Of a DNA stretch of 64,000 nucleotides, positions 23,462 to 54,817 are shown piece by piece. The notes under the pieces were generated by a model. That model was not told the DNA's origin, ran no database searches, and saw nothing but the letters and a program-made list of their open reading frames with translations. Source of the stretch: Candidatus Spongiisociaceae bacterium (GTDB lineage Bacteria; Actinomycetota; Acidimicrobiia; Spongiisociales; Spongiisociaceae); the NCBI GenBank assembly GCA_965262915.1, contig OZ253564.1:2400001-2464000 (forward strand), in the 5' to 3' direction. Positions within the stretch are counted from its first letter, which is position 1. Every line of letters begins with the position of its first letter. Both the position numbers and the translations under genes were made by a program.

Positions 23462-23624
23462 GTGGTCTGTCTGTGAAATGGCTGCGGGGTATGCGCCGGC
23501 AGCGGCGTTCCTCGCAAGGCCCGCCGACGAAGGCGTACCCACAGCGGTATGTCGAGGAGGTGGAACGCAGCGAGGGGCGTCGATGGCTGCCAGAGCACGC
23601 CAAGTTGTTTTGCAGACAGACCAC
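23462..23624. mobile_element. 163-bp MITE-like element, copy 1
   Basis: TIRs GTGGTCTGTCTG / CAGACAGACCAC with TA on both sides; homologous to 48358-48684. Confidence 0.85.
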
Positions 23625-23673
23625 TAAAGACGCCGAGACCCCATCCGAATCCGAGAGCCGCCGGACACATCCC

Positions 23674-24426
23674 ATGATCCCCCTTCGAGACATCAACCCG
23701 TCGTTGAGAACCCCGGTCGTGACGTTCCTGCTCGTGGTGGCGTCGGTGGGTGTGTACCTGTTCGTCCAGCCGGCCGATCCGGCGGACGAGCTGGACTTCC
23801 TGTACCGCCAGGCCGCCATAGCCTGCGAGCTGACCACCGCCGAGGCGCTGTCCCCCGACGAGATCCAACGGGGCGACTGTGAGGACGGTGGGAGCGCACC
23901 GCTCCATCCCGACAAGCCCCTCGAGCTGAGCGTGATCGTCTCGATGTTCCTGCACGGAGGTCTGATTCATCTGATCGGCAACATGTGGAGCCTTTTCCTG
24001 TTCGGCAACAACGTCGAGGACGCCTACGGGCGGCTCGGTTACCTGATCTTCTACCTGGTCTCGGGAGTGGTGGCCACCTTCGGGTTCGTCCTGCTCAACC
24101 CCGGCACCACCGTGCCTCTCGTGGGAGCTTCGGGCGCCATCGCCGGGGTGATGGGTGCCTACCTGGTGCTGTTCCCGCACGCCCGGGTGGTGAGCGTGTT
24201 CCCGCTGCTGTTCTTCATCCCGTTCACCATCTCGGCCGGGTGGTTCCTGCTGGTGTGGTTCGCCGGCCAGTTCGCCCTCACCGCCGTCGAGACCGGTATC
24301 GCCTGGGAGGCGCACGTGGCGGGTTTCCTGTTCGGGATGCTGATCACCCTGGTGGCCCGCCGACCACTGCTGCAGCGCATAGCCAGGCTCGAGCGGAAGC
24401 GCATGGCCCGTCTCGGCTACGGGTGA
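23674..24426 (+). CDS. Rhomboid intramembrane serine protease
   Basis: MIPLRDINP, SMFLHGG..HLIGNM, VGASGAIAG, AWEAHVAG. Confidence 0.95.
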   Translation: MIPLRDINPSLRTPVVTFLLVVASVGVYLFVQPADPADELDFLYRQAAIACELTTAEALSPDEIQRGDCEDGGSAPLHPDKPLELSVIVSMFLHGGLIHLIGNMWSLFLFGNNVEDAYGRLGYLIFYLVSGVVATFGFVLLNPGTTVPLVGASGAIAGVMGAYLVLFPHARVVSVFPLLFFIPFTISAGWFLLVWFAGQFALTAVETGIAWEAHVAGFLFGMLITLVARRPLLQRIARLERKRMARLGYG

Positions 24427-24452: not shown

Positions 24453-27400
24453 CTAAAGCACTGGTCCTTCTCGGTCTTTCTCATCCTCCGTGGGGGGTTG
24501 GATGCTGTCGGACGATGGCTCCGCCACGTCGTGGTGGAACAGATCTTCCGGAACGTAGGGTCCGGCCAGGTCATGGCGGACCGACATGATGGCGAGGTCG
24601 CCGTCGGTCAGGTTGCAGACCCGCGACGCCTTGACGTTGAGGTCACCGGGAGGCGCGATCAGGGTCGAGGGCCACCAAACGCCGGGAGTCAACGCGCGGT
24701 CCGCGTCCTTCAGCGCCTCCGGTTGGAAGTAAGAGTGCGAGACATCGGACGCGGACCGAGGTGCGACCGACCCGAGGAAGTCGTCCAGCGGTTCGCCGCC
24801 CAACTCCGAGGCCTGGAGCGTCCCCTGCTGGCGATACACCCACTCGGCGGCGGCCGCCTGATCGGATTCGACCAGGGCCCGGCCCAGTTCCCGGTCGTAG
24901 GTCCCGAGGCTCATGTCTCGGAGGAAGCGCCAGCGTCCGCTCACCTGGGCGCGCCGGTCGGACTCGACACTGGACACCTCCCGAGGATCCTGGTCGGGAC
25001 GCAGGATTCCTGACGGATCGGAGCCCACCTCGATGGCCCGTAGGTGGCGGTAGGCGTCTATAGCCACGTCGTGACGCTTGCGCAACCATCCCGGTCGGGC
25101 GAGCCCGCTCATCATGCGGGCCCGCATGGCGGTGGCGCCGAGGCTCGTCACGCGGAAGGCGCGGTTCTCAGCCTTCCCCACACCCAGCACGCGGTCGTGG
25201 CCGGACCGTTCCTCGTCTGCCGCCTGGGAGCCGAACGGCCTCCACAGCACGGCCGCCCACGCGCCCGCCGAGGCTACGAACTGTTCGAACGCCTCGGCGG
25301 CGCGCCACGACGCATCAAAGGCCGCAAGGATCCCCCGTTCGAGATCGGCCACCTTGGCCCTCTCCCTGTGGTCGCGGCGGAAACCGTCGATACCCATGGC
25401 CATGAGCAGCAGGAGGATGACGAAGAGGATCCCCGCCTCGTACCACCAGAGGTCTCCGAACCCCTCTCGACGACGGAGCCCGTACCAACCGCCGTCACGG
25501 GCCAGAAGCCCGATCAGTCCGAAGACGCCGTAGATCATCGTGAAGAAGAGCAGCATCCGGACCTGCCGGAAGCTCTCCATCGAGCGGATCGACGGACGAT
25601 CGAGCCGAACAGCCAGTATCACGGCATAGAGGACCAGCGCTACGGACAATCCGAACGCAGGGGCGTCACCACCGGCCCCGACGGCGGCTGCGATCAGCCC
25701 GGCGACCAGCCCGACTACGGCGGACCACACGGCGATGGTCCTCAGACGTGGGATCTCGGAGGAGGGACCGGCGGGAGGCTGTACCGGCGGAGCCTCCGAC
25801 TCCTCGGGCCGATCCGGGACAGCGGTGCTCGATGTCTCCTTGGTGGATGTCGTATCGGTGTCCTCGCCGTCCAGTTCGCCCGCGCTCGTCCCGGACCGAG
25901 GCTCGGTCCGCTTCCGGGATGTGCTTGGACCGCCGAAACGTAAGGCCACCGCACGCGAGATGATCGCCAGCGCGGCAGCATAACCCGCAGTGACCAGGAA
26001 CCAGGCCCAGGAACGGCCCGTGGAGGAGAGCGCTGTTATCCCGACTACCTCGACCAGCCTCGATAGGACGAACAATCCGGTCATCGCCAGCACAACGAGC
26101 CCGGACGTGACGATCCCGGTGGCGGTGAGTGCAGGGAGTTCATCGACATCGAACACGCGACGGGCACGGTCCACGAGGCGTCGGAACTCGGCCCTGTTAC
26201 GAAGCTCAGCGTCACGCAGAAAGGCGCCGATCCGGCCCAGCAAGGTCGTGGGCACACTCCTTGACGCGTCCGCACGGATCTCATCGGCGAGGGCGTCGAT
26301 ATCGGCGGGCGCGATCAGGCCGATGTCGGTGATCACCACGTTGCGTCCCTTGAGTTGTGGTGGCGCCATGTCGCCCGGGGCCTTGTCGCCGTCGACGAGC
26401 GAGAAGACCGCGGTCCCCAGGTCCGACCACAGTTGCTGGTCGATCTCCACACCGCCTATCAGGGCCCGGTGTTGCCTCACCGCCGCGATCACGCTGTCGG
26501 GATCGTCCGGAGTCCGGTCGTCATCGGAGGGCATGCCCCGCCATATGACCCGCAGGATCGAGTCCTGCCCGGCCGCGTCCTGCAGTATCCGGCCGGTGGC
26601 GTCGCGCAGCGCCGCAGACACGTCGCTGAACATGGCGAACGTATATCGGAGGCCGCTCAGTATCCCGGCGCCCATCAGGCGTAGGGTGTCCCCGAAACCC
26701 ATCCGACGCCGGTATTGCTCGGGTTTGAACTCGAACAGAAGACTGTCGAGGTGGGAGACCATCCGCTGCCGTACGTCGGTGAGTGTCTCACGGGGGTAGG
26801 GCGCCTCGTAGCAGCCTCTGGGCACCGGCGCCGTGCCTCCGTGGTTGGCGGCGGCGGCGAGGGTGACTGCCGGGATCTCCGCGACCCGGACAAACGAGCG
26901 GGTCAGGTGTACCTTGGCCTGGCCGAAGCCTATGGGACCTCTGCCCAGGGATTCCACGGGTGCCTCGTCCATGCCCGACCACATTCCCAGCGCGGTGGCC
27001 ACCTCGGCCGCGACGTGGGAGGCGAATGCGTCGGAGTGCGGATCGGTGAGGGGGACGCCGAGCGTCGCCTCGGTGCGACGGTCCTCGGGAATGATGACCA
27101 GGTTGGCGTCTACCCGGGGTGTGAAGAACCCATCGGGTGCCGAGAGGACGCCATCAACCCTCGGATCGCGTCGTGGCGACCAGATCCGTGCCTCGACGAC
27201 CTGCATTCCCTTGGGCTTGAGTGCCTCGATCTGGTCCGCGAGACGCTCGGCAGTCTCCGATACGTAGGCGGCGCTCTCGATGTCGGGGCCGACGACAGCC
27301 ACCACATGGAGCAAATCGAGTTCCTCACGCGCCAGGGTCTCGAACAGTGGGCGTTGCTCCACTCCTGCGCGACCGATATCCATGTCGGGTCCATCGTCGG

Positions 27401-27515
27401 TGCAGGCGACGAAGGGTTTCACCAGACCCGCCCGAGCCCATTCGGTGAGCCGCCGCACTGCCGCAGTCGTGGCCTTGTCGTTGGCGACTACGAGGACGCT
27501 GCGGCGGGCGGTCAT
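24453..27515 (-). CDS. 1020-aa multi-pass membrane protein of the tubulin-like operon
   Basis: Long ORF with a 4-bp overlap to the tubulin gene; about 6 central hydrophobic segments between large soluble domains. Confidence 0.8.
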   Translation of the reverse strand: MTARRSVLVVANDKATTAAVRRLTEWARAGLVKPFVACTDDGPDMDIGRAGVEQRPLFETLAREELDLLHVVAVVGPDIESAAYVSETAERLADQIEALKPKGMQVVEARIWSPRRDPRVDGVLSAPDGFFTPRVDANLVIIPEDRRTEATLGVPLTDPHSDAFASHVAAEVATALGMWSGMDEAPVESLGRGPIGFGQAKVHLTRSFVRVAEIPAVTLAAAANHGGTAPVPRGCYEAPYPRETLTDVRQRMVSHLDSLLFEFKPEQYRRRMGFGDTLRLMGAGILSGLRYTFAMFSDVSAALRDATGRILQDAAGQDSILRVIWRGMPSDDDRTPDDPDSVIAAVRQHRALIGGVEIDQQLWSDLGTAVFSLVDGDKAPGDMAPPQLKGRNVVITDIGLIAPADIDALADEIRADASRSVPTTLLGRIGAFLRDAELRNRAEFRRLVDRARRVFDVDELPALTATGIVTSGLVVLAMTGLFVLSRLVEVVGITALSSTGRSWAWFLVTAGYAAALAIISRAVALRFGGPSTSRKRTEPRSGTSAGELDGEDTDTTSTKETSSTAVPDRPEESEAPPVQPPAGPSSEIPRLRTIAVWSAVVGLVAGLIAAAVGAGGDAPAFGLSVALVLYAVILAVRLDRPSIRSMESFRQVRMLLFFTMIYGVFGLIGLLARDGGWYGLRRREGFGDLWWYEAGILFVILLLLMAMGIDGFRRDHRERAKVADLERGILAAFDASWRAAEAFEQFVASAGAWAAVLWRPFGSQAADEERSGHDRVLGVGKAENRAFRVTSLGATAMRARMMSGLARPGWLRKRHDVAIDAYRHLRAIEVGSDPSGILRPDQDPREVSSVESDRRAQVSGRWRFLRDMSLGTYDRELGRALVESDQAAAAEWVYRQQGTLQASELGGEPLDDFLGSVAPRSASDVSHSYFQPEALKDADRALTPGVWWPSTLIAPPGDLNVKASRVCNLTDGDLAIMSVRHDLAGPYVPEDLFHHDVAEPSSDSIQPPTEDEKDREGPVL

Positions 27516-30500
27516 AGCGAGGGCCTTCTGCCCGAGGCATCAGCCCTCAGACAACGCACGATGTTGGCGATCTCCTCGGTGATGAGGTCGGCGATGCCTA
27601 GCCATGCATTCCGGGCACTGTTGTCGCTGCGGCGATCTTCTTCGGCTTGCCGGCGATACAACCCGATCTGTTGCTCCAATAGTTCGGTTGCCTCCTGTCT
27701 TCGGGATGGAGGATCCATACCCGTAACCACCGCTTCCCTTCCAGATGGCGTCGTTCCCGTCCTGAGCCACGTCGAAAGTACCGGGCTGGGGTGTGGGAAC
27801 ACCTTGAGGTCCGGACCGACCGCGCCATGCGAACGGCCCCACTCCAGCAGCTGTGAGTAGGGACCCAGAAAGCGTTCGGCGTCCTTGCGATCAGCGGCCG
27901 CCGGCAGAGCAAGGCACAGCCCCTCTATCAGGGAGGCGAGGACGGCCCAGGGCTGTCCGCGTAACGGGAGCATGGGCTCGAACCTGGACACTCCACGTTC
28001 GGTTGCGAGCGCCACGGTGTTGACTTCGAGTTCGACCAATCCGAGCATCCTGCCGATGAACCATCCTCTGATCAGGGCGCGCAACATGGGCCGTGGAATC
28101 GGCGTGGCCCTCGACAGGGCACGCGATCGGCGGGCGTTCCAGAAACTGACCAGGTTGGACGTGTCCTTCTCCTTTCGCCATGCGTCGGTGATGGGCTTTG
28201 TCAGCGAGTCGAAGCACATGGGATGGAGAGCACCGCCGAGCGAGGTGTAGATCGCCACTCTGGTCTCCCGTTCGGACTGGTTGAGTGTCTGCTCCACCAT
28301 CTCGGCATCTCTGTCAAGCCGTGAGAGGAGGTATTCACGGACGAGCGGTTCGACGGGGAGGCCGGCGACCGGGATCGGGCTGGTTACGGGCCGGATGCGC
28401 AGATCCAAGCCAGAATGTACCTGTTGAACCAATTCGCGGTCGACCGATACCAACGGTTCGGCCGCTTCAAAGGCCTTTTCGAGCGACTTCCGGAACCGTT
28501 GTTCTCTGGGGGCCCGCACCGCAGGAGGTAACGAGTCCGAGAGATATCCCCGCAGCCCCAGCGTTAGAGACTCCTTCCAGGCTGAGCCGTCGGTTCGCAA
28601 CCAGGCACGTGCCCGCGCGAGCAGGTCGTCTCGGCTGATGCGTACGGTGAACGAAGCGCGGCGCGGGGCAGCGTCGCCGACCGTGAGCCACTCCGGGGCG
28701 GACCATCTGGAGTTGGTCAGTATCCAAGGCTCCATAGTGCTCTGCTCGCTCTCGCCGGTGATCACGGTTCGCCGGACCTGAATCCAGGCCTCCTCGAGTC
28801 CCTCCGCTCCGGTCGAGTCCATGGTGTGTTTTTCGAACAGCCGAGGGAAATCGGCCGGATCGATGACCAGCATGGTGCTGGCGCCGGGCTCGAGCGCCTC
28901 GGGAACTAATCGGTCGGACGCGGGATGGTGGCGGGGCCAATCATCGATCGGCGTTGAACCTGCTTCACTCCTATCGGCTTCCACCGCTTGACGCAAGGCG
29001 TCGTATCCTCGCTCGATCGTATCGCGGAGCGGCTGGACAACTCCGTCGCGCAAGTCTGCGACCAGCCGAGAGGCAATGAGACGATGCGCAGCGTTGTAGG
29101 GATGTACCAGGCCGGTCTGGATCGCCTTGCTGATGGCGTTGCGGACTCCCTCGTGATCGGCCGGTAGAGCACCCAGACCCATCCCGATGGCGTCCAGAAC
29201 ATCGGATCGGAGGTGTCCTGCCCATGCAAGCTCTTCCTGGCGCTCGGACTCGAGTTCTTCGGCCACATTTGCCATCTCCGCGTCGGCCTTGGCAAGGAGT
29301 CGCAGAGCTATCTGCGCTCCATAGTCGGCTAGGTTCGTGCCGACTACCTGCACGATCCGGTCGGTGATCCGCTCCACCCACTTCAAGGCCTCGTCCCGCA
29401 GCCGATCATCCAGCTTCTTCAGAACTCCGGCGCGTCGGACCTCCACCCCCTCCACGATGCAGTCCGCCCATCGCTGGGTCCTGGCTTTCGAACCGACTTC
29501 CTCAGACGCTTCGTAGCGGACCCGGTCCGCCACATCCCTGAAGATCGCGTCGAGTTCTACATCGGGGAGTCCGATGGAATCGAGAACCTGGTTGTTGTCG
29601 CGTCCCCGCTCGTTGATGCCGGAGGTCTTCAGAAACCGAGTGAAGGCGTCCTCAGCGAGATCCTCGACGATCTCCTCGGTGGTTTGGTTCTCGTAGCGCG
29701 GCCGTTTCCTGGCGGCCTTGACGTAGGCACCGCGCAGGAACTCGACTGCGTCACGCGTGAACCGCTGCTCGGCATAGGTGCCGAGTCGGCCCACGCCGAG
29801 GTCCACCTCGGCGAACCCGAGCGCCTGGATGGCGCCGAAGTACTTCGGCGGATCGGGCAACATCAATGTCTCAGCGCCGTGGGTGGGGAAACTGCCCGCA
29901 GAAGATTGCCAGTTGGCTTTCATGTAGACCGTGAAGTCGTCCTGCATACGCCGGTCCGTCATCACCGCGGCCAGGCAGCGCGCCATGAAGCGATAGGCGG
30001 CAAGCTGGTCGCCGAAGCTCACGCCCTTGGTATTGGTATGTCCTACCAGATAGGGGAAAGCAGGGCCGGAGCGCTGCTGGACCTGGCCGCCACCCGGCGG
30101 GATGAACCCCCCATCTCCGTAGTAGCCGTGCAGTATCTCCGCCAACGCCGCGGCCGTGTTGGGATAGACGCCACGGCTCGCAGCCTCGGAGAGGTCGACG
30201 AACACGTCAGCCGAATAGAGGATGCCGATCGATTCGTCCATCCACGAATCGCCCTCGGCCCTGAGGATGTCGCACACATCCATCACGATGCCTGCGCCGG
30301 TCCCGCCCGCCAGAGAAGACACCACGATCGCCGCGGGCGTCGCCGCGGACTCGCTGGCCAGAGATAGGCCGGAGGCCCGCTCGGCGAGTTGCCGGAGCTG
30401 AGCCATGGCGCCTGCGCTCAGGAGAGCCTGCTTCTTCATCCTTATTCGCCTCTGGATCTCGTCAGCGTGGAAGAGGCCGAGCACGCGGCCCACCGCTCGG

Positions 30501-30844
30501 TACTGGCCGGCGCCCGCCTCGATGGGAATGCGCATGTAATCGGAGTCGAACAGCCAACCGCCGAAGTCGCGTCCCCTGCGTTCGAGGCTGTCCACCATCG
30601 CCGCCAAATCGATACCGGGCCGAGCGAGTCCCAAGTATTCATCGGCCTCGAGCAGATCCGGGGCTCCCGGGAGGACCGGGGAGTCCTGCTGGACGGGGGT
30701 GTCGATGTGGAGTAGCTGCCAACCGTCGGGCATGCCCTCCTCCCAGCCGATCTCGCGGAACCTCTCCTCAAGGGCTTGTTTCAGGTAGCGCAGGGTCTTG
30801 CCACCTGAGCCGCCGAGGCCGATGATCAGGAACTGTTGCAGCAC
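27512..30844 (-). CDS. Tubulin/FtsZ-like GTPase (Tubulin_2/FtsZl1 type) with long C-terminal extension
   Basis: IIGLGGSGGK, HIDTP, GAGQYRAVGR and the tubulin-signature variant SSLAGGTGAG. Confidence 0.88.
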   Translation of the reverse strand: MLQQFLIIGLGGSGGKTLRYLKQALEERFREIGWEEGMPDGWQLLHIDTPVQQDSPVLPGAPDLLEADEYLGLARPGIDLAAMVDSLERRGRDFGGWLFDSDYMRIPIEAGAGQYRAVGRVLGLFHADEIQRRIRMKKQALLSAGAMAQLRQLAERASGLSLASESAATPAAIVVSSLAGGTGAGIVMDVCDILRAEGDSWMDESIGILYSADVFVDLSEAASRGVYPNTAAALAEILHGYYGDGGFIPPGGGQVQQRSGPAFPYLVGHTNTKGVSFGDQLAAYRFMARCLAAVMTDRRMQDDFTVYMKANWQSSAGSFPTHGAETLMLPDPPKYFGAIQALGFAEVDLGVGRLGTYAEQRFTRDAVEFLRGAYVKAARKRPRYENQTTEEIVEDLAEDAFTRFLKTSGINERGRDNNQVLDSIGLPDVELDAIFRDVADRVRYEASEEVGSKARTQRWADCIVEGVEVRRAGVLKKLDDRLRDEALKWVERITDRIVQVVGTNLADYGAQIALRLLAKADAEMANVAEELESERQEELAWAGHLRSDVLDAIGMGLGALPADHEGVRNAISKAIQTGLVHPYNAAHRLIASRLVADLRDGVVQPLRDTIERGYDALRQAVEADRSEAGSTPIDDWPRHHPASDRLVPEALEPGASTMLVIDPADFPRLFEKHTMDSTGAEGLEEAWIQVRRTVITGESEQSTMEPWILTNSRWSAPEWLTVGDAAPRRASFTVRISRDDLLARARAWLRTDGSAWKESLTLGLRGYLSDSLPPAVRAPREQRFRKSLEKAFEAAEPLVSVDRELVQQVHSGLDLRIRPVTSPIPVAGLPVEPLVREYLLSRLDRDAEMVEQTLNQSERETRVAIYTSLGGALHPMCFDSLTKPITDAWRKEKDTSNLVSFWNARRSRALSRATPIPRPMLRALIRGWFIGRMLGLVELEVNTVALATERGVSRFEPMLPLRGQPWAVLASLIEGLCLALPAAADRKDAERFLGPYSQLLEWGRSHGAVGPDLKVFPHPSPVLSTWLRTGTTPSGREAVVTGMDPPSRRQEATELLEQQIGLYRRQAEEDRRSDNSARNAWLGIADLITEEIANIVRCLRADASGRRPSL

Positions 30845-30904
30845 GATGCCTCTCCTTGGTCGGGACCGAAGATCCGGGACGCCCTTAACCGGGCGCAGGT
30901 TGTT

Positions 30905-33292
30905 TCACTCATCGAGCCCCATCTCTTCGGGTGCCGGGATACTCGAGAGTGCCTCCCTGATGTACCCGGCGAGCTGGTCCTCGGTAGGGGTGGACGGGTC
31001 AACCGGCGCCATCACCACCCCGGGATGCGGCATTCCTCCCGACACGTCTATCACGACGATGGGTTCATGGAGACGTCTTTCCGAGCGCAGGTCGTGTGTT
31101 CGCCCTGCGACGTTCGTGGCTTCGTGCCCCGAGCCGACCATCCCGACGAAGCGCCGCCCTGACAGGGATAGCCGGACGTAGGGAGGCCGCCACGGTCGCC
31201 ACGGCGTCTTCCGTACCGCCCGCAGGTCGCCGGCCTGGAGGCGGGCCGGGGAATGGCGGGGTCTGCGAAAGTCCGCTCCGGCCAGGTCGGACACCAGGGT
31301 CCAGTCGTCTCCGACCCGGAAGGTTGCGTACCTGCCGCGCCGCGGTCGCCGTATCCGGCCGGCGATCCGGTTGATTCCGTACAGCCATCCCCAGATGAAC
31401 GCCAGGAGCAGAGCGAGCATCGCCCCGATCAGGATCGCCTCGAGGGTCTGGTTGCGGGGATGGTCGATGTCGACGGAGACCTCGAACGATATCTCTCGCG
31501 TCTCGCCTGCCGGGTCGGCCGGATCGCTCACGTAGGCGAAGCGGAGGATGTGGTCGTCGGGGGTCTGGACCGAGTTGTCGAGGCGCACATGCAGTTCTAC
31601 GGGCTCGGAATCGCCGGAGACCCACGCGGCTGCTCCGTCCGGGAACGCCAACTCGACGCCGACCTCGGTTCCGTCGGTGCCCACGATGGAATCGGCCGGA
31701 AGCAGCCGTATCTCCCCCTCTCGACCGTCGTCCTCGATGACGATCGGGATGGCGAAATCGGTGGCCTCGACAGAACCCAGCCTGGACTCGGTGACCCGGA
31801 GAATTGGCCCGTCGGGCAGATCGGCCACGGTGAAAGTGGTCGATGCGGAGGCAGGATCGGCATGATCGGAGAGGAGGCGGACCCGGTACGTGTGGTCCCC
31901 TGCGGTGAGCGGCGATGACCGGAAACGCCCGTGTCCGAGGCGTTTGGGCGTGACCGGGCCTCCGTCGAGCACTACCTCAAGGAAGGGCTCGTCGGCCTGG
32001 TTGAGCGGCGCCCCGTTGGCGTGCAGCGAGAAGTCGACGGGCGTGTCGGGGAAGATCGGACTCGTGTGCACCCGGATAGTCAGGGCAGGAGTGCGGAGGA
32101 CCAACGCACCGCAGACCTCATCGACCCCTTCGCCACGGACCTCGGCCGGGGTGAACGGCGCTTCCGGGTAGTCGAGGGTTATCCGGCGGGCGCGGTCGGC
32201 GTCATCCAGACGGAATGCAGGGTGGTTGGTCGACAGTTCCGCATCGTCGCCTTCGGCCACGACCACCACCGAACGGACGAACGACGGGGGGATACCGTCG
32301 GGCAGCTTCCCGTCCCACAGGACACCGTCCCGGGCACTTACGGTGAGCCACGGCCCGGAGAGGTTCTCGCACGCGCGGGAAGGGGGGATAGTGGTGGTGG
32401 TAGGGATAGTGGTGGTGGTAGTGGTCGGGATAGTAGTGGTTGTAGAGGTCGTGGGAGGTGGCGGAGGCTCGACGAATCTGAACTCCGGATGCGTGGTCGT
32501 TTCCAAAGCGATGTGATCGCCACAACCCCCCGTCTCCATCATGTTGAGAAGGTTCTTGGTGTCACCTGACGGAGGGTCTCCTACGTAGAAGAGGCGGACA
32601 TCGAGCCGAGTACCGAGTTGGGCGAGACGATCCGACAGGTCACCGTAGCCCGCTGCGACTTCCTCTTCCTGCGACTCGTCGCCGCACACCGCGGGGATCA
32701 GGAGATCTGCTACCGCGTTGCCGACCCGCCGACTGGTGAGCCGACGCTGAAGGCCGTCGTACGCACGGGGGCTCCGGTCGCCCCGATAGGCGTCGCCAAG
32801 GTCGTGACGCCCGTCGGTCAACCAGACCACCCGGTGGCAGTCGGCCGACCACTCGAGATCCAGCAGGCCGTACAGGGCGGCCACGTAGTCCGTGTTCAGG
32901 TCGTGGTCGCCGAACTGTTCGATCGTGGACAGCAGGTCCTCGTTGCCGTTGGCCTGCAGGTCCGTGAAGTCGCGCCGCAACTCGAAGTCGGTACCGAAGG
33001 CCGCCAGGGCGAGGCGTACCCGCAGGCCTGCCCGGACGGACCTCTCGAGGGACGCTACGTAACGTTTCGCGGCGGCGATTCGCTCGCCGTCGGGGTCGTT
33101 GCGGCGCAGCGACTGGGACTCGTCCATGAGGATCAACACGTCCCACGACCGCGCCTCAGGCGGGCAGAATACGTCCGCATCCACAGGATCCTGACCCCGG
33201 GCCGGAACTACGACGATGGCGACGCCGGTTAGGGCAATGAGAACGGATATGGATATGACCGATCGGCGACCGCGACCCGTGGTTCGGGTCAT
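30905..33292 (-). CDS. Membrane-anchored vWA-domain protein
   Basis: Signal peptide; MIDAS DESQS...TDY...WLTDG; Pro/Thr linker; C-terminal TM ILIGAMLALLLAFIWGWLY; basic tail. Confidence 0.85.
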   Translation of the reverse strand: MTRTTGRGRRSVISISVLIALTGVAIVVVPARGQDPVDADVFCPPEARSWDVLILMDESQSLRRNDPDGERIAAAKRYVASLERSVRAGLRVRLALAAFGTDFELRRDFTDLQANGNEDLLSTIEQFGDHDLNTDYVAALYGLLDLEWSADCHRVVWLTDGRHDLGDAYRGDRSPRAYDGLQRRLTSRRVGNAVADLLIPAVCGDESQEEEVAAGYGDLSDRLAQLGTRLDVRLFYVGDPPSGDTKNLLNMMETGGCGDHIALETTTHPEFRFVEPPPPPTTSTTTTIPTTTTTTIPTTTTIPPSRACENLSGPWLTVSARDGVLWDGKLPDGIPPSFVRSVVVVAEGDDAELSTNHPAFRLDDADRARRITLDYPEAPFTPAEVRGEGVDEVCGALVLRTPALTIRVHTSPIFPDTPVDFSLHANGAPLNQADEPFLEVVLDGGPVTPKRLGHGRFRSSPLTAGDHTYRVRLLSDHADPASASTTFTVADLPDGPILRVTESRLGSVEATDFAIPIVIEDDGREGEIRLLPADSIVGTDGTEVGVELAFPDGAAAWVSGDSEPVELHVRLDNSVQTPDDHILRFAYVSDPADPAGETREISFEVSVDIDHPRNQTLEAILIGAMLALLLAFIWGWLYGINRIAGRIRRPRRGRYATFRVGDDWTLVSDLAGADFRRPRHSPARLQAGDLRAVRKTPWRPWRPPYVRLSLSGRRFVGMVGSGHEATNVAGRTHDLRSERRLHEPIVVIDVSGGMPHPGVVMAPVDPSTPTEDQLAGYIREALSSIPAPEEMGLDE

Positions 33293-33711
33293 ACCGGCCA
33301 CTCGCGGGCGATGCGGACAGCGATCAGGTAACCGCACCAGAGAGCTGCGCCGACGGAGGCGAGCAGCGACAGCCTGGCCAGAATGGTGGGTCTCCACCAC
33401 CGCTCCCGCCAGCTCGTCCGCTCGCGGGACCTTCCCAACTGGAATAGGGCGAAGCCGGGAAGCGACAGGACCAGTACGCCCAGGATTCCGCCGACTGCCC
33501 GTTGGAATCCCGGGTCACCGATGGCCCGCACCTCGTGGGCGATCAGAGCCGCCGTCACCGCGAGAGAGGTGCCGAGCAGTGCGACGGCCAGCCACCAGGC
33601 CCATGGGATGACATGCAACCCCGGTGGTCGGCGCCGAGCAGGCCGCCGCGAAACTCTTCTTCCTCTGTCGCTCCCGGAGGATCGCGGATCTAACTCGAAC
33701 TCGTAACCCAT
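33289..33711 (-). CDS. Small 3-TM membrane protein, first gene of the tubulin-like operon
   Basis: Three hydrophobic helices; 4-bp overlap with the vWA gene. Confidence 0.7.
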   Translation of the reverse strand: MGYEFELDPRSSGSDRGRRVSRRPARRRPPGLHVIPWAWWLAVALLGTSLAVTAALIAHEVRAIGDPGFQRAVGGILGVLVLSLPGFALFQLGRSRERTSWRERWWRPTILARLSLLASVGAALWCGYLIAVRIAREWPV

Positions 33712-33839
33712 GGAACGCCTGTCGTTACTCCGCCCGCCGCATGCCGAAACGGATCTCCTCTACATATAGGGAACGATTCGGACAATAGCAATATCGGGGC
33801 TGATCCTTGCCCTGTGATTTGTCGTCGGAGGTGGTTGGG

Positions 33840-35204
33840 CTATCCGTTTGCCCGATACGGCAGGCGTCGGATGATCCGGCTCAGGAGCTCGGCGGTGAGT
33901 CCGAGCGAACCCACGCCGATGCGCTCGTCGTTGCCGTGGAACATCCCCAAGAAGTCGCTCAACGGGACCCGGTCGTCGAAGAGGCCCACGCCGTATGCTT
34001 TGATCCCTTTGGCGCGGAAGAAGCGGGCGTCGGTGGTCGCCGGGGTCATGGCCGGTACGATCCTGCGGCTCCCGGTCATGGATTCGTAGGCGTCGCCGAT
34101 GGCTTCCCAGAGCGGTCCGTCGGCGGCGGACGAGTTGGCCGGATAGTCGATCACAGACTCGATATCGATCTCGTCGTAGAGGGGTCCCAGGACTTTGCGG
34201 AGATGGTCGTCGATCGTCTGGTCCGTCTGGCCGGGAAGGACCCGGATGTCGAGAGCCGTGTCGGCCCGGTCGGCCACCGTATTGGCTTTGGTTCCCCCGC
34301 TCACCAGGTTGGGGCTGAGGGTCAGGTGGGTGCAGGCATGCGCCCAGCGGGCCAGCAGCGGGTCTTCGGTGGCCATGAGTTCGATCTCGGCATCTACCAG
34401 GTCCGGGTCGAGGAGGGCGGCCGCACGGGCGGGTTCCCAGCCCACCCCTCCCACGAAGCTTCGCCACTCGGGGGTGATCTCGACGGGGCTTCCCGAACGG
34501 GCGATAGCGACGATGGCCTCCGCCACCTTGACCACCGCGTTGTCGGTTCCGTAGGGCTGGCTGCCGTGTGACGGTACGCCGGAGCCTCTGACGATCCTCC
34601 AAGACGGACCCTTCTCGGCCACTTTGACCGGGTAGACCGGCGGCCGGCCCGGGCTGCGGATGGCCGGGGAGGCGACCTCGGTGAGCACGTAGTCGCATTC
34701 GATCAACTCGGGCCGGTGGTCCATGAGCCATCCGGCGCCCAGACCTCCCCCCTCCTCCTCGTCGGCCACGGCGAGATAGACCAGGTCACCCGGCGGAGGG
34801 GGCGACTCCCCCGTCAGGTAGGGCTTGAAGACGACCGCCATCGCGGCGGTCAGGTTGAGCATGTCCACCGCCCCCCGGCCCCATACCATCCCGTCGATGA
34901 CCTCGGCGCCGAACGGGTCCACCGACCACCCTTCCTCGGTGACCGGCACCACGTCCAGATGGCCCATCAACAGCAGGCAGGGTGCGGCCGGGTCGCTCCC
35001 CGGAATCCGGTACACCACGCTCTGGCGGTCCGGCGCCGGTTCCACCACCTCCCCCGATGCACCGAAGTAGGCCTCGAGGGTCGTCACCGATCGGGCCTCG
35101 TGACCCGAGGCCGGCGACCCGTCGTTGACGCAGCGGTTCCGGATGAGTGCTTGGAGGAGCTCGAGCACCTCTCCCTCGGTATGGGTGACGGGTCGGTCGC
35201 TCAT
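33840..35204 (-). CDS. M20/M25/M40 metallo-hydrolase
   Basis: GHLDVVP, WGRGAVDM, ADEE, HGS, TDARF, HGNDE. Confidence 0.92.
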   Translation of the reverse strand: MSDRPVTHTEGEVLELLQALIRNRCVNDGSPASGHEARSVTTLEAYFGASGEVVEPAPDRQSVVYRIPGSDPAAPCLLLMGHLDVVPVTEEGWSVDPFGAEVIDGMVWGRGAVDMLNLTAAMAVVFKPYLTGESPPPPGDLVYLAVADEEEGGGLGAGWLMDHRPELIECDYVLTEVASPAIRSPGRPPVYPVKVAEKGPSWRIVRGSGVPSHGSQPYGTDNAVVKVAEAIVAIARSGSPVEITPEWRSFVGGVGWEPARAAALLDPDLVDAEIELMATEDPLLARWAHACTHLTLSPNLVSGGTKANTVADRADTALDIRVLPGQTDQTIDDHLRKVLGPLYDEIDIESVIDYPANSSAADGPLWEAIGDAYESMTGSRRIVPAMTPATTDARFFRAKGIKAYGVGLFDDRVPLSDFLGMFHGNDERIGVGSLGLTAELLSRIIRRLPYRANG

Positions 35205-40262: not shown

Positions 40263-40948
40263 GAACCGTCCTGCTCCGCCACGCTGTCCTCCGGTGGGGT
40301 CTCGTCCGCTCCGTCGCTCGCCTGCCCGGCGCCCTCTCCGTCAGGCGGAGGGTCGGCGGGAGGCGGTGGATGTACGGATTCGGGCATCGGGTCCCCCATG
40401 CCTTCCCATACATCGCTCGGGGACACCCCGGTGGGCGGATCCGGAGCTATCCACCGTGCCTGGGGGGTCTTGGCGCCGGTGGCGGCCGTTTCCGTGGCGC
40501 TGGCAGCCTGCTTACTAGCGGTGGTTTGTGGTGGGGTTCCGCCGGTCGCGGCGGCCGCTCCTGTGGCGCTGGCAGCCTGCTTACTAGCGGTGGTTTGTGG
40601 TGGGGTTCCGCCGGTCGCGGCGGCCGCTCCTGTGGCGCCGGCCAGCGGACCCTTGGCCGAACGCCTGATGTCCCGCTCGGCCGACTTGGCCACATCGGCG
40701 GTCTCGGTCAATGTGCGGCGCACATCGGAGACGGGTTTGGACAGGTCCTCTTTGATCTCCTTGATGGGGTCGCGGAGGGGACCGATCTCCTGCTCGATGC
40801 CCTGTCGCAGGTCGGTCACCGCCGCCTTCAACTCGCGCAGGTGCCTCCCGATCGTGCGGGCGATGTCCGGAAGGCGGCCCGGTCCGAACACCACCAGAGC
40901 GATCACCGCGATGGTGAGGATCTCGGCACCGCTCAGGGACTCGAACAT
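40259..40948 (-). CDS. tatB: TatA/TatB family subunit with long low-complexity tail
   Basis: MFESLSGAEILTIAVIALVVFGPGRLPDIAR; amphipathic helix; immediately upstream of tatC. Confidence 0.75.
   Translation of the reverse strand: MFESLSGAEILTIAVIALVVFGPGRLPDIARTIGRHLRELKAAVTDLRQGIEQEIGPLRDPIKEIKEDLSKPVSDVRRTLTETADVAKSAERDIRRSAKGPLAGATGAAAATGGTPPQTTASKQAASATGAAAATGGTPPQTTASKQAASATETAATGAKTPQARWIAPDPPTGVSPSDVWEGMGDPMPESVHPPPPADPPPDGEGAGQASDGADETPPEDSVAEQDGS
40494..40638. repeat. 69-bp perfect in-frame tandem duplication in tatB
   Basis: Units begin at 40494 and 40563 and encode ATGAAAATGGTPPQTTASKQAAS. Confidence 0.9.
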
Positions 40949-48352: not shown

Positions 48353-48357
48353 ACCTA

Positions 48358-48684
48358 GTGGTCTGTCTTTGAAATGGCTGCGTGGTATGCGCCGGCAGCG
48401 GCATTCCTCGCAAGGCCCGCTGACGAGGGCATACCCGCAGCGTACGTCGAGGAGGCGGAACGCAGTAAGGGGCGTCGCTGGCTGCCAGAGCACGACAAGT
48501 TGTTTTGCAGAGGGGACCACAGTGGTCTGTTTGTGGAATGGCTGCGTGGTATGCGCCGGCAGCGGCGTTCCTCGCAAGGCCCGCTGACGAAGGCATACCC
48601 GCAGTGGTACGTTGAGGAGGCGGAACGCAGTGAGGGGCGTCGCTGGCAAGTAGAGCACGACAAGTTGTTTTGCAGACAGACCAC
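48358..48684. mobile_element. Two tandem copies of the 163-bp element (48358-48520, 48522-48684)
   Basis: Same TIRs and body as 23462-23624; TA at 48356-48357 and 48685-48686. Confidence 0.88.
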
Positions 48685-51961: not shown

Positions 51962-52287
51962 GGCGCAACCTTGGAGCGGACGGCGGCCCACACGATGGTC
52001 GCGGCCAGCCCCAGTGCGAGGAGCGCGCCGATCAGGTAGGCCAGGACACTCCACAGCGGCGTGTCCGGCAGGAGGTCCAGGGCCAGCCGCAGGCCTGCGA
52101 TCACCAGTAGCAGCCAACCCAGCGCGAACAGGACACCGCCGAGCAGGCTGAAACCGGCATACCGGGCGGTTCGCCGGAGGGGCGCGACCGCCTCCTGCTC
52201 GAGGTAGCCCTTCGACAACTCGAACAGTTCGGAGACCAGGCGGGGTATCTCGGCTTTATTCAATAGATCACCATGGGTGGCCAACAA
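51958..52287 (-). CDS. Holin-like (DUF1469-type) 2-TM membrane protein
   Basis: LVSELFELSKGYLEQE..PL followed by two TM helices. Confidence 0.6.
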   Translation of the reverse strand: MLATHGDLLNKAEIPRLVSELFELSKGYLEQEAVAPLRRTARYAGFSLLGGVLFALGWLLLVIAGLRLALDLLPDTPLWSVLAYLIGALLALGLAATIVWAAVRSKVAP

Positions 52288-52423
52288 GCGCGTTCCCGAT
52301 TCTAGGAGAATGCCGGAAAACGGTTAAAACGGCTGCCCCGTCGTCCGCTGACGTGGCATTTCGTCATCGACCGGCGGGCCAACGGGGGGTTTCCCAGCAG
52401 TCTCCGAGCGGCTGGGGCCCGCG

Positions 52424-53731
52424 TCAGAGGGCGGGGACATCGAAGATGACGCCCCCGAAGAGCAGCGAGGAGATCAGAGGCGTCCAGACGATGTTGGCGC
52501 CCTGGCCCAACAGGAAGGCGATGGCGGGACGGCCCTGCTCCATCGATACCAGGTTGCGGAAACGGGTCTCGAGGCCGATGGATACGAAGGCCAGAGCGAA
52601 CCACCAGGATCGCAGGCCTCTCATCAGGTCCCGGGTCGAGTCGACGAACTCGCTGCTCAGCACGAATGAGAACAGCAGGGAGGCGACGACGAAACCTAGG
52701 ACGAACTTGGGAAACCGCTCCCAGATCACCGAGACGGTGGGGCGCTCCCCGTTCCGGGAGTCGTTGCGGAAGGCCCACCACAGGGATATGGCGAAGGCCA
52801 CCAAGCCCAGCAGGGCGTTCTGGGAGAACTTGACGATCACCGCCGCGTTCAGTGCCGACTCGCCGAGGATCTCGCCGGCGGCCACCACCGCGCCGGAGGT
52901 GTCGATGGGTGATGGTACCGCCCAGCCACGCTCCCCCCACGATGGTGGACATGCCCGCACGTTCTACCACCCAGGGCATGAGGATGGTCATCGGGACGGC
53001 GACGACTAGAACAAGCGAGGTGACGTAGGAGAGTTCCCTGCGGTCTCCCGAGATGGCGCCGCATGCGGCGATCGCCGCGGAGACCCCGCAGATCGAGACC
53101 GCCGAGGCCAGCATGACCGAGAACTCGTCGTCCACCCGCAGCCGCCTCGATATCCGGAAGCAGAGGTACCAGACGACCAGGACGACCGCCAGGGCCTGGA
53201 CCACACCCAGCAGGCCCGCCCGGAGGATCTCCCCGAAGAGGACGTTGGTCCCGAGGATGACGAGCCCGGTCTTGATGTAGTACTCGGTCCGGATCGCCTC
53301 GCGCATCCGGGCGGGCACGCCCAACGCGTTGGAGATGAGGAGCCCGACGAGCAGCGCCACGATGACGTAGGTGATCGCCATTGCTTGAGGACCGCGTTGC
53401 CTGCGACGAACCGGCTCGTCCAGGCGAGCAGGAACACCGCCGGAAAACCGGCCGCGTAAGCCCCGACGCTGCGTCCCATCAGACGCACCCCACCAGCCGA
53501 GCCGACCATCAACAGGATCCCCACCAGCAGCACCGCCGCCACGCTCCCCGTGAACACGTCTCCGGGGCCTGCGGGGCCCCAGGAGAACGCCGGCATCACC
53601 GGCCGGACCCCGATCAGGACCAGGACTACGAGGGCGGCGCCCAGCCACACCGCCAACCAATCTTCGGAAGCACGCTTCCCGAGGCCGTTCGGGAGGCTGG
53701 TCAACGAGTCATCCCTCTCTCTCGCGTCCAT
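52424..53731 (-). pseudogene. YeiH/UPF0324 putative sulfate exporter, frameshifted
   Basis: SEDWLAV, EYYIKTGLV, SICGVSAAIA, IDTSGAV, RFPKFVLGF. Frameshifts near 53378 (-1) and near 52908 (7-nt duplication). Confidence 0.85.
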
Positions 53732-53780
53732 GCACTCGTCGCTCGCCGCGTCCGGTGCGGAGGCTACCCTCGTCCTCTCG

Positions 53781-54704
53781 ATGTCGTACTCTCCCGGCCG
53801 GCCGGGCCGGCCACCCATCTTCTCCACGGCTGTGGGAACCCAGAGGGGACCGTTCGGGTGGCTGGAGTGGGTGCTGCTGACCGGAGTAGCCCTCATATGG
53901 GGTTCTTCGTACCTCCTCATCGACATCGGGCTCGACGCTCTGGCGCCTCCGGTCATCACGTGGATGCGGGTGACGCTCGGATTCGCGGTCCTGGTGGGTT
54001 TCCCGGCCGCCCGCCGCCCGGTGGACCGGTCGGACCGGCGACGGATCGTGGCCCTCGGGGTTGTCTGGACCACCGTCCCGTTCCTGCTCGGTCCCATCTC
54101 CCAGCAACACATCGACTCGGCTCTGGCGGGAATGCTCAACGGTCTCGTACCTATCTTCAGCGCCGCCATCGCCATGCTGCTGTTGCGGGCGCTGCCGGGA
54201 GTACGGCAGGTAGCGGGAATCCTCATCGGACTCGTCGGCGCGGTCAGCCTCGGGTTCCCCGTCGGAAGGGAGTCCCAGGCGGCCGCATGGGGGATCCTCC
54301 TGGCCGTGGTGGCTGCGATCCTCTACGGATTGGCGCTCAACATGGCCGTACCGTTGCAGCAGCGTTACGGGGCGCCGGCGGTGATGATGAGGGTCTTGGG
54401 GGTGGCGGCGGTGACCACCGCACCCTTCGGGATCGCCGGTCTGGGCCACTCGGCGTGGGAAGTCGCTCCCGTGGTGGCGGTGACGGTGCTGGGGATCCTC
54501 AACACGGGCGCCGCGTTCGTGATCATGACAGTCTTCGTCGGGCGCGTGGGCCCCACCCGTGGGGGCGTGGCCATCTACTTCCTGCCGATCGTCGCCATGG
54601 TGCTGGGCGTGGTGTTCCGGTCCGAGGTCGTGCTGCCGCTGCAATGGGCCGGGACCGGCCTGGTGCTCGTCGGAGCCTTCCTGACGAGCAGGCGCGAAAC
54701 CTGA
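53781..54704 (+). CDS. EamA/DMT transporter, paralogue 1
   Basis: IWGSSY, QQHIDSALAGMLN, LQQRYG; about 10 TM segments. Confidence 0.9.
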   Translation: MSYSPGRPGRPPIFSTAVGTQRGPFGWLEWVLLTGVALIWGSSYLLIDIGLDALAPPVITWMRVTLGFAVLVGFPAARRPVDRSDRRRIVALGVVWTTVPFLLGPISQQHIDSALAGMLNGLVPIFSAAIAMLLLRALPGVRQVAGILIGLVGAVSLGFPVGRESQAAAWGILLAVVAAILYGLALNMAVPLQQRYGAPAVMMRVLGVAAVTTAPFGIAGLGHSAWEVAPVVAVTVLGILNTGAAFVIMTVFVGRVGPTRGGVAIYFLPIVAMVLGVVFRSEVVLPLQWAGTGLVLVGAFLTSRRET

Positions 54705-54817
54705 CCGGGGCGACCGTGATGGGCAGTCCGGTTCTGCTACTGCCACCACCGGGACATGTTCAGCCTTGTTCTGAACCGTGTCGGGCGCCTACGGCCCCGG
54801 CTACTCTCGTCCCTCTG

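Follow-up and report, generated by a model that had tools for sequence, protein, structure and literature searches.

The window analysed here, a 64,000-nt stretch of contig OZ253564.1 (assembly GCA_965262915.1, positions 2,400,001 to 2,464,000) from a Candidatus Spongiisociaceae bacterium, carries a cassette of four genes, A to D, which encode a small membrane protein, a predicted exported von Willebrand factor A (vWA) protein, a tubulin-like protein of the FtsZl1/Tubulin_2 family and a large multi-pass membrane protein, respectively. It is highly likely that the four genes have these identities and belong together as a unit. As a whole, the cassette is best explained as a surface-triggered, membrane-anchored GTPase assembly of an accessory conflict or surveillance type, a reading to which we assign a probability of about 0.45. 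Within the tubulin/FtsZ superfamily, FtsZl1 proteins belong to the most diverged members, and the literature searches made here found no functional test of them, in agreement with the first-pass annotation of this DNA, which knew of no experimental function. The cassette is a stripped-down four-gene form with no DO-GTPase, GAP1 or kinase layer, and the locus gives a testable handle on a question that has stood since 2010.

Gene C matches the Pfam family PF13809 (Tubulin_2) with an E value of 5.9e-43 and 147.9 bits (cut-off 27), residues 6-367 covering positions 1-355 of the 356-position profile. Its hydropathy profile contains no segment behaving as a transmembrane (TM) helix. Among 45 homologues of 28-61% identity, the motifs GLGGSGGKT (residues 9-17), GAGQxR (111-116) and SSLAGGTGAG (176-185) as well as Asn229 and Glu236 are invariant, and the invariant motif classes are T1, T3-like and T4. 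For comparison with these Gly-rich signatures, the genome's own FtsZ has GGGTGTG. The AlphaFold2 model of C built from the 45-homologue alignment has a mean predicted local distance difference test score (pLDDT) of 90.1 and a predicted template modelling score (pTM) of 0.81, so that a tubulin fold, as proposed in the first-pass annotation, is predicted with high confidence. Searching the model against the PDB by Foldseek revealed five hits at E ≤ 1e-3, all of them CetZ or FtsZ (best E 2.6e-4), with tubulins and TubZ ranking just under this cut. VIA-align, run against a library of 48,161 representative chains, superposed the model onto CetZ (3zid_B) with a Z score of 23.6 and a root-mean-square deviation of 3.6 over 301 of 342 residues (model residues 2..899), and onto FtsZ (2vaw_A) with a Z score of 18.4 over 274 of 315 residues (model residues 1..873). 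Asgard and eukaryotic tubulins gave Z scores of 19-21 over residues 2..987, CetZ2, TubZ and BtubA were also at the top, and TubZ/PhuZ scored 16-22, compared with about 7 for unrelated Rossmann folds. Profile searches of C and D against PDB sequences returned rows at chance level only, with best E values of 0.088 and 0.13.

The structural alignments cover nearly the whole two-domain targets, yet on the model of C they span from residue 2 to residues 873-987, indicating that the second domain lies after residue ~790. The putative insertion that precedes it contains helices at residues 389-408, 428-450, 456-508, 510-542 and 565-623, as assigned by DSSP on the model. From residue 797 onwards, a loop in the model leads into a short helix and a strand, after which come helices, another strand, a further helix and finally three strands, an order that would fit T7-H8-S7-H9-S8-H10-S9/S10. 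The candidate T7 loop, PLVSVD, resembles GLINVDFADV in the genome's own FtsZ; its residues P797 and L798 are invariant, and residue 802 is Asp in 38, Asn in six and Glu in one of the 45 homologues. Both the position of the second domain and that of the T7 loop are suggested by the end points of the aligned residues and by the order of secondary-structure elements. We propose that C is probably a complete two-domain tubulin/FtsZ fold interrupted by a coiled-coil-like helical insertion of ~400 residues. The model suggests that the 'missing' filament-forming half would lie past this insertion, with Asp802 as the candidate catalytic aspartate.

The orthologue of C in G007, the closest relative (L035, G007:C38:13385-16622) is found in two frames with a break near residue 720-727, its matches covering residues 1-719 and 725-1107. 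A 775-aa truncated form of C with 86% identity makes up the protein cluster P0053, present on three contigs. The break in G007 could be a real population frameshift or a recurrent assembly error.

A further set of observations concerns the C-termini of C and D. Within the same locus, the two proteins share a short C-terminal peptide, and this peptide varies across lineages. In the window, C ends with ...RRPSL and D with ...EGPVL, and pairs from other loci are ...EREFL/...DREFL, ...KKSGI/...ANSGI, ...EPEPLM/...VAEPLM, ...DSGLR/...DDGLR, ...KGDFN/...AADFN and ...DDDGD/...DDEGD. The last residue of C equals that of D in 50 of 61 loci, against 10.8 ± 2.6 in shuffled pairings, and none of 10,000 shuffles reached 50. 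When a single locus was taken per 45% C-identity cluster, the last residues were identical in 22 of 28 loci (shuffled 3.3 ± 1.6), and over the last three residues 55 of 84 positions were identical (shuffled 10.8 ± 3.5); comparing the tails of B and C as a control gave 8 of 84. Positions -4 and -5 contribute little to the match. In 20 diverse loci, the same codon is used for 20 of 51 identical residue pairs; with so few shared codons, the match is kept at the protein level, and neither gene conversion nor an artefact of assembly accounts for it. Most exceptions are loci in which D or C is truncated (e.g. L100, L118 and L123). In addition, 53 of 65 diverse D representatives end with Leu, Met, Phe, Val, Ile, Trp or Tyr after an acidic or Pro-rich disordered stretch. 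The chances that the tails of C and D dock in one common pocket are, in our estimate, even. The co-varying tails offer a specific and swappable handle on the question of which protein binds which. A tail code, should it prove real, would represent a new way to wire a tubulin-family protein to a membrane partner.

Hydropathy analysis of D gives about six TM segments, arranged as two plus four within residues 462-525 and 591-714. Accordingly, an alpha/beta N-domain (1-460) is followed by the membrane part (461-715), in which a loop, acidic and disordered, separates the two groups of TM segments, then by a C-domain (716-985) and by a tail that is likewise acidic and disordered. The even number of TM segments puts both large terminal parts on the same side, so the N- and C-domains are predicted to face the cytoplasm, and B would be the only protein of the cassette with a sizeable outside domain. 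D belongs to a family without a name. A word-based search found 35 relatives. With a profile, 450 clusters were detected among 1.84 billion representatives at E ≤ 1e-3, of which 251 reach E ≤ 1e-10 and 112 reach E ≤ 1e-30. Members of the family are mostly 900-1300 aa in length and are matched at both ends, and the Protein Atlas returned unnamed Actinomycetota clusters only. In an alignment of 98 sequences, the N-domain displays a conserved polar cluster of P143 (89%), D145 (98%), H167 (95%) and W179 (99%), and no Gly-rich loops.

The AlphaFold2 model of D is weak, with a pLDDT of 60.6 overall and 77-90 for the first ~115 residues. In VIA-align, eight tubulin-family chains rank at the top for this low-confidence model, with Z scores of 8.4-10.2 over 231-247 aligned residues; FtsZ scores 7.8 on residues 1-213, and generic Rossmann folds about 7. 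Foldseek against the PDB found nothing (best E 0.22), and the profile search against PDB sequences gave only chance-level rows and no solved relative. Profile-profile comparison of C and D by hhalign, using the full-length proteins, the N-domains, and deeper N- and C-terminal profiles in four pairings, yielded probabilities of at most 0.4. A kinship of D with tubulin, without the nucleotide-binding motifs, is thus a lead and should not be taken as a result.

Six TM segments in D together with large cytosolic domains and the conserved polar cluster would suit a complex for signalling or transport. In such a complex, C would serve as a switch controlled by GTP and would not form a polymer. Such a role was raised as an alternative for FtsZl1 in a reviewer comment published in 2010 with a paper that, in its available part, did not identify the filament-forming elements (PMC2875224). 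We consider this explanation quite unlikely: according to the model, C would have both a second domain and a T7-like loop, neither Pfam nor NCBIfam assigns D to a transporter family, and the best structural matches of D are not transporters.

A and B are the candidate components for sensing at the membrane. Hydrophobic segments at residues 38-59, 71-94 and 114-135 and an Arg-rich N-terminus starting with MGYEFEL suggest that A is a small protein with three TM helices and a cytosolic N-terminus. The first-pass annotation had described A as a 3-TM and D as a multi-TM protein, which agrees with the three and about six segments found here. B matches VWA_2 in Pfam (E 2e-8, 35.3 bits, cut-off 27). 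It has an N-terminal hydrophobic segment at residues 9-34 and one TM segment at residues 614-640, giving the order signal/anchor, vWA domain, Thr/Pro linker, beta-rich region of ~300 aa, TM helix and tail of ~155 aa. From this order, B is predicted to be a type-I single-pass protein, with the vWA domain extracytoplasmic and the tail of ~155 aa in the cytosol. The metal ion-dependent adhesion site (MIDAS) is intact and comprises D57-E-S59-Q-S61 (DESQS), T134 and D160 (numbering of the 795-aa protein). In an alignment of 85 sequences, the D.S.S, TDY and W.TDG motifs are kept and the MIDAS residues are conserved at 70% or more, which points to a metal-dependent binding domain. The earlier proposal of a linkage between the tubulin-like gene and an outside vWA protein thus finds support in the VWA_2 match, the predicted export and the intact MIDAS. 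Conserved extracellular cysteines were also found in the homologues. The cytosolic tail is poorly conserved and is merely a Pro-rich stretch in many lineages. Pfam finds no FNIII domain in B, and the beta-rich region may contain diverged repeats.

The Thr/Pro linker of B is encoded by a short tandem repeat found by Tandem Repeats Finder (Table 1). Around this repeat, at positions 32350-32683 of the window, one public run shows a depth spike of 178 versus ~14 together with contig ends, typical of a low-complexity, length-variable stretch.

The cassette was found well beyond the window. A pattern scan of one genome per species revealed at least 153 loci with relatives of C, of which the best 80 were fetched and surveyed by open reading frame (ORF) calling and iterative hidden Markov model (HMM) searches seeded with the proteins of the window. 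Complete C ORFs are present in 73 of these 80 loci. Gene B precedes C in the same orientation in 68/68 loci that offer at least 2.5 kb of room, and D follows C in 61/61 loci that offer at least 2.8 kb; as the B and D profiles were built from the same loci, these counts represent consistent adjacency and not independent detection. The searches picked up a homologue of A in 23 of the 60 loci with room. Of 40 further loci, 33 have a positional analogue of A where B begins, defined as a same-strand ORF of up to 250 aa that contains two or more hydrophobic segments; 2 of 109 starts of other genes, taken as controls, were positive in this test. The co-occurrence of the four genes elsewhere is therefore borne out, with B-C-D throughout the 80 public loci and, as described below, A-B-C-D in all eight related loci.

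Among the best 80 loci, the nearest come from metagenome-assembled genomes (MAGs) labelled Candidatus Spongiisociaceae, Candidatus Poriferisodalis or Acidimicrobiia, and other carriers are labelled, among others, Occultella, Cellulosimicrobium, Georgenia, Leifsonia, Amycolatopsis, Aquihabitans and Planktophila. The presence of the module in cultured and harmless actinomycetes (Cellulosimicrobium, Georgenia, Leifsonia, Occultella, Amycolatopsis and Aquihabitans labels) provides a practical entry point for experiments. The same labels help to judge a comparison with integrins, in which an extracellular MIDAS/vWA-type domain on a single-pass protein with a short tail is coupled to a cytoskeletal NTPase polymer. 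By analogy, the cassette might be an adhesion device that serves life with a sponge host, the vWA domain binding host or substrate and the tail being tied to a tubulin scaffold. This is an analogy only, as the lineage is another one and the polymer would be of the tubulin type rather than of the actin family. The intact MIDAS, the conserved extracellular cysteines, the single-pass topology of B with its cytosolic tail and the labels of the closest MAGs would all agree with such a device. However, B-C-D also occurs in genomes with the seven other labels, so the module is not tied to sponges, and the tail that would have to reach the scaffold is poorly conserved and often only a Pro-rich stretch, which makes adhesion very unlikely as the main function.

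The C type (E ≤ 1e-10) is rare: in an even sample of Actinomycetota, 1 of 300 other genomes carries it. Of the two features raised in the first-pass annotation, a patchy distribution is supported by this figure and by the indel described below; with regard to a linkage to defence islands, PADLOC gave no match for the four proteins and few of the neighbours are defence-like. The genes that follow D are variable. Downstream room is available in 54 of the 61 D loci, and 41 of these have a same-strand ORF of at least 150 aa that starts within 300 nt of the end of D. Pfam assigned 10 of the 41 ORFs to Trypsin_2, four to Beta_propel, three to GmrSD_C, two to UvrD-type helicases, and one each to Type ISP, CHAT and HRDC. 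In the trypsin-like proteins, which are presumably extracytoplasmic, the peptidase comes last, after an Arg-rich N-terminus, a single TM segment and a Pro/Ala linker. The window has no such fifth gene, since D ends 26 nt from the convergent rhomboid gene.

In the loci L047-L052, the ~58%-identity cassettes of the same genus and of its sister genus, the fifth gene encodes a membrane-anchored Trypsin_2 peptidase (e.g. L047:16510-17556). In all six of these loci, A and the trypsin-like protein both begin with F-E-F-[E/D]-Y; A of the window begins with MGYEFEL, and in another clade A begins with NVPIPG, a motif shared with no partner. In loci labelled Occultella or Cellulosimicrobium (e.g. L076:5728-6663 and L081:16069-17316), the neighbour is a membrane-anchored GmrSD_C (HNH-type nuclease) protein. 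A single family of fifth genes was considered and rejected, as the group is a mix of Trypsin_2 and GmrSD_C proteins that probably clustered through their similar N-terminal anchor and linker regions.

Comparison of closely related genomes showed how the cassette behaves as a unit. Among 41 related genomes, including that of the window, C was found in 10 and D in 10, and the two are adjacent in nine; G017 has a C-like gene of 28% identity alone, and G004 has a weak 50-residue match to D alone. All eight loci fetched from the other eight genomes with C and D have the order A-B-C-D. The flanks of the window are common to G002 and G007 only, whose C proteins are 85-86% identical to that of the window. 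In G001, G003 and G006 of the same genus and in G010, G015 and G018 of another genus, the cassette resides in a different genomic context, with C ~58% and A, B and D 44-51% identical. In 4/4 congeners fetched, the rhomboid and M20 genes are adjacent, separated by spacers of 329 (G001), 172 (G003), 1031 (G005) and 407 bp (G006). Comparing these four empty sites with the filled site revealed no cassette remnants, alignable borders or target-site duplications. The flanking genes in the four genomes are 61-80% identical to those of the window, and 69-79% identical in the three of them that carry the ~58% C cassette elsewhere. Two of the seven congeners, G004 and G005, gave no hit for the C type. 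The cassette thus corresponds to a clean indel of 9.3 kb that separates the rhomboid gene from the M20 gene. Two lineages of the cassette, each at a site of its own, exist in the genus, and no genome was seen to have more than one.

G006 also has a second, divergent Tubulin_2 locus (L034, C1:2538000-2557900), which is in two pieces, 30-31% identical to C and preceded by a weak vWA-like match, so that two FtsZl1 systems coexist in this genome.

The four genes evolve like their neighbours. Compared with G002, the ratio of nonsynonymous to synonymous substitution rates (dN/dS) is 0.14-0.29 for the four genes and 0.14-0.39 for six flanking genes, and dS is 0.67-0.80 and 0.47-0.87, respectively. 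The similar values of dN/dS and dS in cassette and flanks indicate vertical descent since the common ancestor and purifying selection. In contigs from three public DNA runs, the operon is complete and differs by substitutions alone, no indel being reported, and none of 40 listed variants of 80 in these contigs creates a stop. The 40 listed strain differences comprise 25 in D (15 synonymous and 10 not), nine in B (three synonymous and six not), two in C and one in A, C being far less variable than D. One further run, presumed to be RNA, yielded just four short contigs (150-180 nt), of which three were chimeric.

Purifying selection in all four genes at the level of their neighbours, and the position of the cassette among housekeeping genes in the window, are in line with the proposal published in 2010 (PMC2875224, available part). 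According to this proposal, the system would be a housekeeping cytoskeleton for membrane remodelling or vesicle formation, with C polymerising on the inner face of the membrane and B and D as structural components. It would also account for the fact that all partners are membrane-bound and, if the model is right, for the long helical stalk and full tubulin-type fold of C. Yet a housekeeping cytoskeleton is hard to reconcile with a C type found in 1 of 300 other Actinomycetota genomes and a cassette not found in two of seven congeners, with the clean indel, or with a different cassette lineage at another site in congeners. Furthermore, bending a membrane from inside needs no exported MIDAS domain. 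We therefore regard remodelling as fairly unlikely to be the primary role.

As the cassette is an indel and C is a member of the tubulin superfamily with structural matches to TubZ/PhuZ, a DNA-segregation system of a mobile element was also considered. This explanation is extremely improbable. Neither the four genes nor the nine ORFs around them encode a DNA-binding adaptor, an integrase or a replication protein, tRNA genes are absent within 15-45 kb of the window, and none of the proteins matches PHROGs. The C type occurs in 0 of 50,697 phage and 3 of 72,556 plasmid records (24-28% identity), the locus is chromosomal, and all partners of C are membrane or exported proteins.

Based on these observations, we propose a mechanism for the cassette as a surface-triggered assembly. 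C would bind GTP and hydrolyse it upon self-association through the T7-like loop, a step that the proposed complete split fold would make possible. D would tether C at the membrane, where the tails of C and D might compete for, or share, one pocket encoded by the cassette, most simply on C, similar to the contact of the tail with the neighbouring subunit described for phage TubZ/PhuZ (PMC3678025, available part). In this way D might nucleate, cap or anchor the C assembly. Upon binding of a ligand by the vWA domain of B outside, a change would be passed inward through the TM helix and tail of B and through A. The least certain step is the purpose, which would be an accessory response of the conflict or envelope-surveillance type and not that of a housekeeping cytoskeleton. 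The patchy spread, the clean indel, the two cassette lineages within one genus and the variable hydrolase add-ons argue for such a purpose, which agrees with the view of Kaur et al. 2020 (PMC7159879) and which we put forward tentatively and at somewhat less than even odds. Some relatives add presumably extracytoplasmic hydrolases as extra modules; the window copy has none.

A bolder version is that D is itself a membrane-inserted, motif-less relative of tubulin that pairs with C, both presenting the same tripeptide to one pocket, so that D nucleates or caps C under the control of B and A from outside. We consider this version unlikely. If true, it would provide a bacterial outside-in link from a surface receptor to a tubulin-family polymer, and a programmable peptide code that keeps co-resident systems separate.

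Several observations weigh against the proposed assembly or its defence-like purpose. The candidate catalytic residue Asp802 is replaced by Asn in six of the 45 homologues of C, and the receptor of the tails could be on D or outside the cassette. With regard to defence, the C type is nearly absent from the phage and plasmid records given above, and PADLOC-DB 2.0 (2023), which covers described systems only, gave 0 families for the four proteins at E ≤ 0.1. The neighbours of the cassette in the window are housekeeping genes. Most of the genes following D encode ordinary enzymes and few are defence-like, and some of these ORFs may be shadows of the opposite strand. The dN/dS of the vWA domain is 0.15, and this domain-level analysis found no diversifying selection in B. 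Finally, a physiological function tied to a particular niche would be equally consistent with so sparse a distribution.

The arrangement of the locus is summarized in Table 1. The first-pass annotation had reported four co-oriented intact genes with two 4-bp overlaps between a rhomboid and an M20 gene, and all coordinates proved correct. The translations contain no internal stop codon. C and D overlap at positions 27512-27515, and A and B overlap likewise by 4 bp (ATGA). The longest ORF for B is 831 aa (33400..30905), starting from a GTG at 33400. The true start is most likely the ATG at 33292, from which the predicted 795-aa protein begins with MTRTTGRGRR; it is preferred because of the ATGA overlap with the stop codon of A and because the signal/anchor segment follows directly. 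The spacer upstream of A is a likely place for a promoter belonging to the cassette itself, or for transcription reading through from the M20 gene. A consensus scan of this spacer found no sigma-70-type promoter, actinobacterial promoter types being outside the coverage of the scan, and a consensus scan for minus-strand terminators between the four genes found none.

Table 1. Coordinates of the cassette, its parts and its immediate flanks (positions are those of the window).
Feature	Position	Strand	Description
Gene A	33289..33711	-	140 aa, ATG start; from ORF and translation
Gene B	30905..33292	-	795 aa, ATG start at 33292; VWA_2
Tandem repeat in B	32391..32449	.	24-nt unit, 2.5 copies; codes for Thr/Pro linker (Tandem Repeats Finder)
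Spacer B-C	30845..30904	-	60 nt; ribosome-binding site GGAGAGG a few bases 5' of the GTG of C
Gene C	27512..30844	-	1110 aa, GTG start; PF13809 Tubulin_2
C, nucleotide-binding domain	29744..30829	-	residues 6-367; Pfam envelope and invariant columns
C, helical insertion and mixed region	28475..29704	-	residues ~381-790; approximate, inferred boundaries
C, second (activation) domain	27845..28474	-	residues ~791-1000, inferred; candidate T7 loop PLVSVD 797-802
C, last three codons	27515..27523	-	P-S-L; one half of the shared C-terminal peptide
Gene D	24453..27515	-	1020 aa, ATG start; no named family
D, last three codons	24456..24464	-	P-V-L; other half of the shared C-terminal peptide
Spacer from M20 stop to A start	33712..33839	-	128 nt
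Rhomboid gene (flank)	23473..24426	+	E 3.9e-30; convergent with D
M20 peptidase gene (flank)	33840..35204	-	E 6.8e-28; upstream of A

The outer neighbours encode a GNAT protein, a YegS-type lipid kinase, a DSHCT helicase, an NAD kinase and RecN. In nine flanking ORFs, no GTPase, kinase, FHA, OmpA-like, DNA-binding adaptor, integrase or replication gene was found. Neither NCBIfam, PADLOC nor PHROGs matched any of the four proteins, and A and D were unmatched in Pfam at E ≤ 0.1. The genome consists of one 5.06-Mb contig (96% complete, 5.9% contamination); it has one copy of Tubulin_2, namely gene C, and a canonical FtsZ ~0.3 Mb away (FtsZ_C match, E 2.6e-31). Elsewhere in the window, long tandem repeats occur at 48357-48676 (164-nt unit, 1.9 copies, 91% matches) and 40481-40642 (69-nt unit, 2.3 copies, 95% matches). 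A strong swing of AT skew, from +0.17 to -0.27, is seen at 52-56 kb, and the G+C content is 0.56-0.61 at 56-60 kb, compared with ~0.67 elsewhere in the window. The region 52001-60000 may be foreign or otherwise unusual DNA.

FtsZl1-vWA operons were predicted computationally by Makarova and Koonin in 2010 to form a membrane remodelling machine (PMC2875224; statements on this paper refer to its available part). Similar to these operons, the cassette combines a divergent tubulin/FtsZ protein containing a coiled coil with a vWA protein that has a MIDAS and a signal peptide or TM segment, it includes lineage-specific membrane proteins, a canonical FtsZ is encoded elsewhere, and the actinobacterial members form their own clade (PMC2875224). 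A diverged P-loop GTPase, a Ser/Thr kinase and an OmpA-like protein are frequent but not obligatory partners of FtsZl1 in that account, whereas no P-loop GTPase, kinase or OmpA partner is found in the four genes and nine flanking ORFs of the cassette. The 2010 paper did not find T6-H7 and the C-terminal tubulin domain in FtsZl1, and with the filament-forming elements unidentifiable it left filament formation open (PMC2875224). In contrast, the model of C suggests that T6-H7 and the C-terminal domain are present, both beyond the large insertion. The available part of that paper makes no mention of matching tails in C and D.

The first-pass annotation rightly named the 2010 prediction but understated the prior knowledge, as Kaur et al. 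2020 (PMC7159879) also describe such neighbourhoods. They reported a single actinobacterial tubulin gene fused to an uncharacterised alpha-helical region at the C-terminus, together with a membrane vWA protein whose beta-rich domain is likewise uncharacterised, and placed these neighbourhoods in the GAP1-N2-type DO-GTPase conflict systems (PMC7159879). As far as the available text of that paper goes, the defining core of these systems is the DO-GTPase-GAP1 pair, and they are described as mobile neighbourhoods with variable add-ons. They act near the membrane, as the cassette would. An HRDC-FNIII protein was not found with the cassette by Pfam, and D is outside their description in the available text. 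PF19993 (DO-GTPase) and PF20013 (GAP1-N2) have no match in the whole genome, which is 96% complete, although both controls were positive in Corynebacterium glutamicum, and no PF20013 match was detected in any of the 37 genomes with a cassette of this type. PF19975 (DO-GTPase) has no match in the genome either, but its control was positive nowhere, so this result is uninformative. With neither these families nor an extra GTPase, kinase or FHA gene found, the earlier description of the locus as a possible minimal version is a fair one. Since the DO-GTPase/GAP1 core was not found in the genome and GAP1-N2 in none of the 37 carriers, the A-B-C-D module is, judged by these profile searches, a separate and simpler branch of the FtsZl1-vWA theme. 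As this kind of system was catalogued in 2010 and again in 2020, the cassette is not a new class and only the variant is new. As judged from the available texts and the literature searches, the proposed split complete fold of FtsZl1 and the tail code of C and D appear to be new, and so do the DO-GTPase-less four-gene family and the D family, although supplementary tables may list the latter two.

A functional analogy exists with Esr of oral Actinomycetota, a MoxR-vWA pathway shown experimentally to sense a surface threat (bioRxiv 10.64898/2026.09.08.750141, available part). Both are actinobacterial modules of a vWA protein and an NTPase, and no homology of the cores is claimed. Esr contains a MoxR AAA+ ATPase, a cytosolic vWA protein, a kinase/phosphatase, an FHA protein and beta-propeller sensors, of which the cassette has none.

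The closest precedent for the proposed docking of tails is found in TubZ/PhuZ. According to the available part of PMC3678025, phage TubZ/PhuZ place their C-terminal tail on the adjacent subunit, and the tail of Bacillus and Clostridium TubZ recruits a cofactor. TubZ/PhuZ share the tubulin/FtsZ fold with C, and their tail contact sets a precedent for a tail-docking site. They are proteins of 300-400 aa without an insertion, work with DNA-binding adaptors and reside on mobile replicons (PMC3678025). In the cassette, by contrast, C has membrane proteins as partners, and a second copy of its tail is carried by another protein, D.

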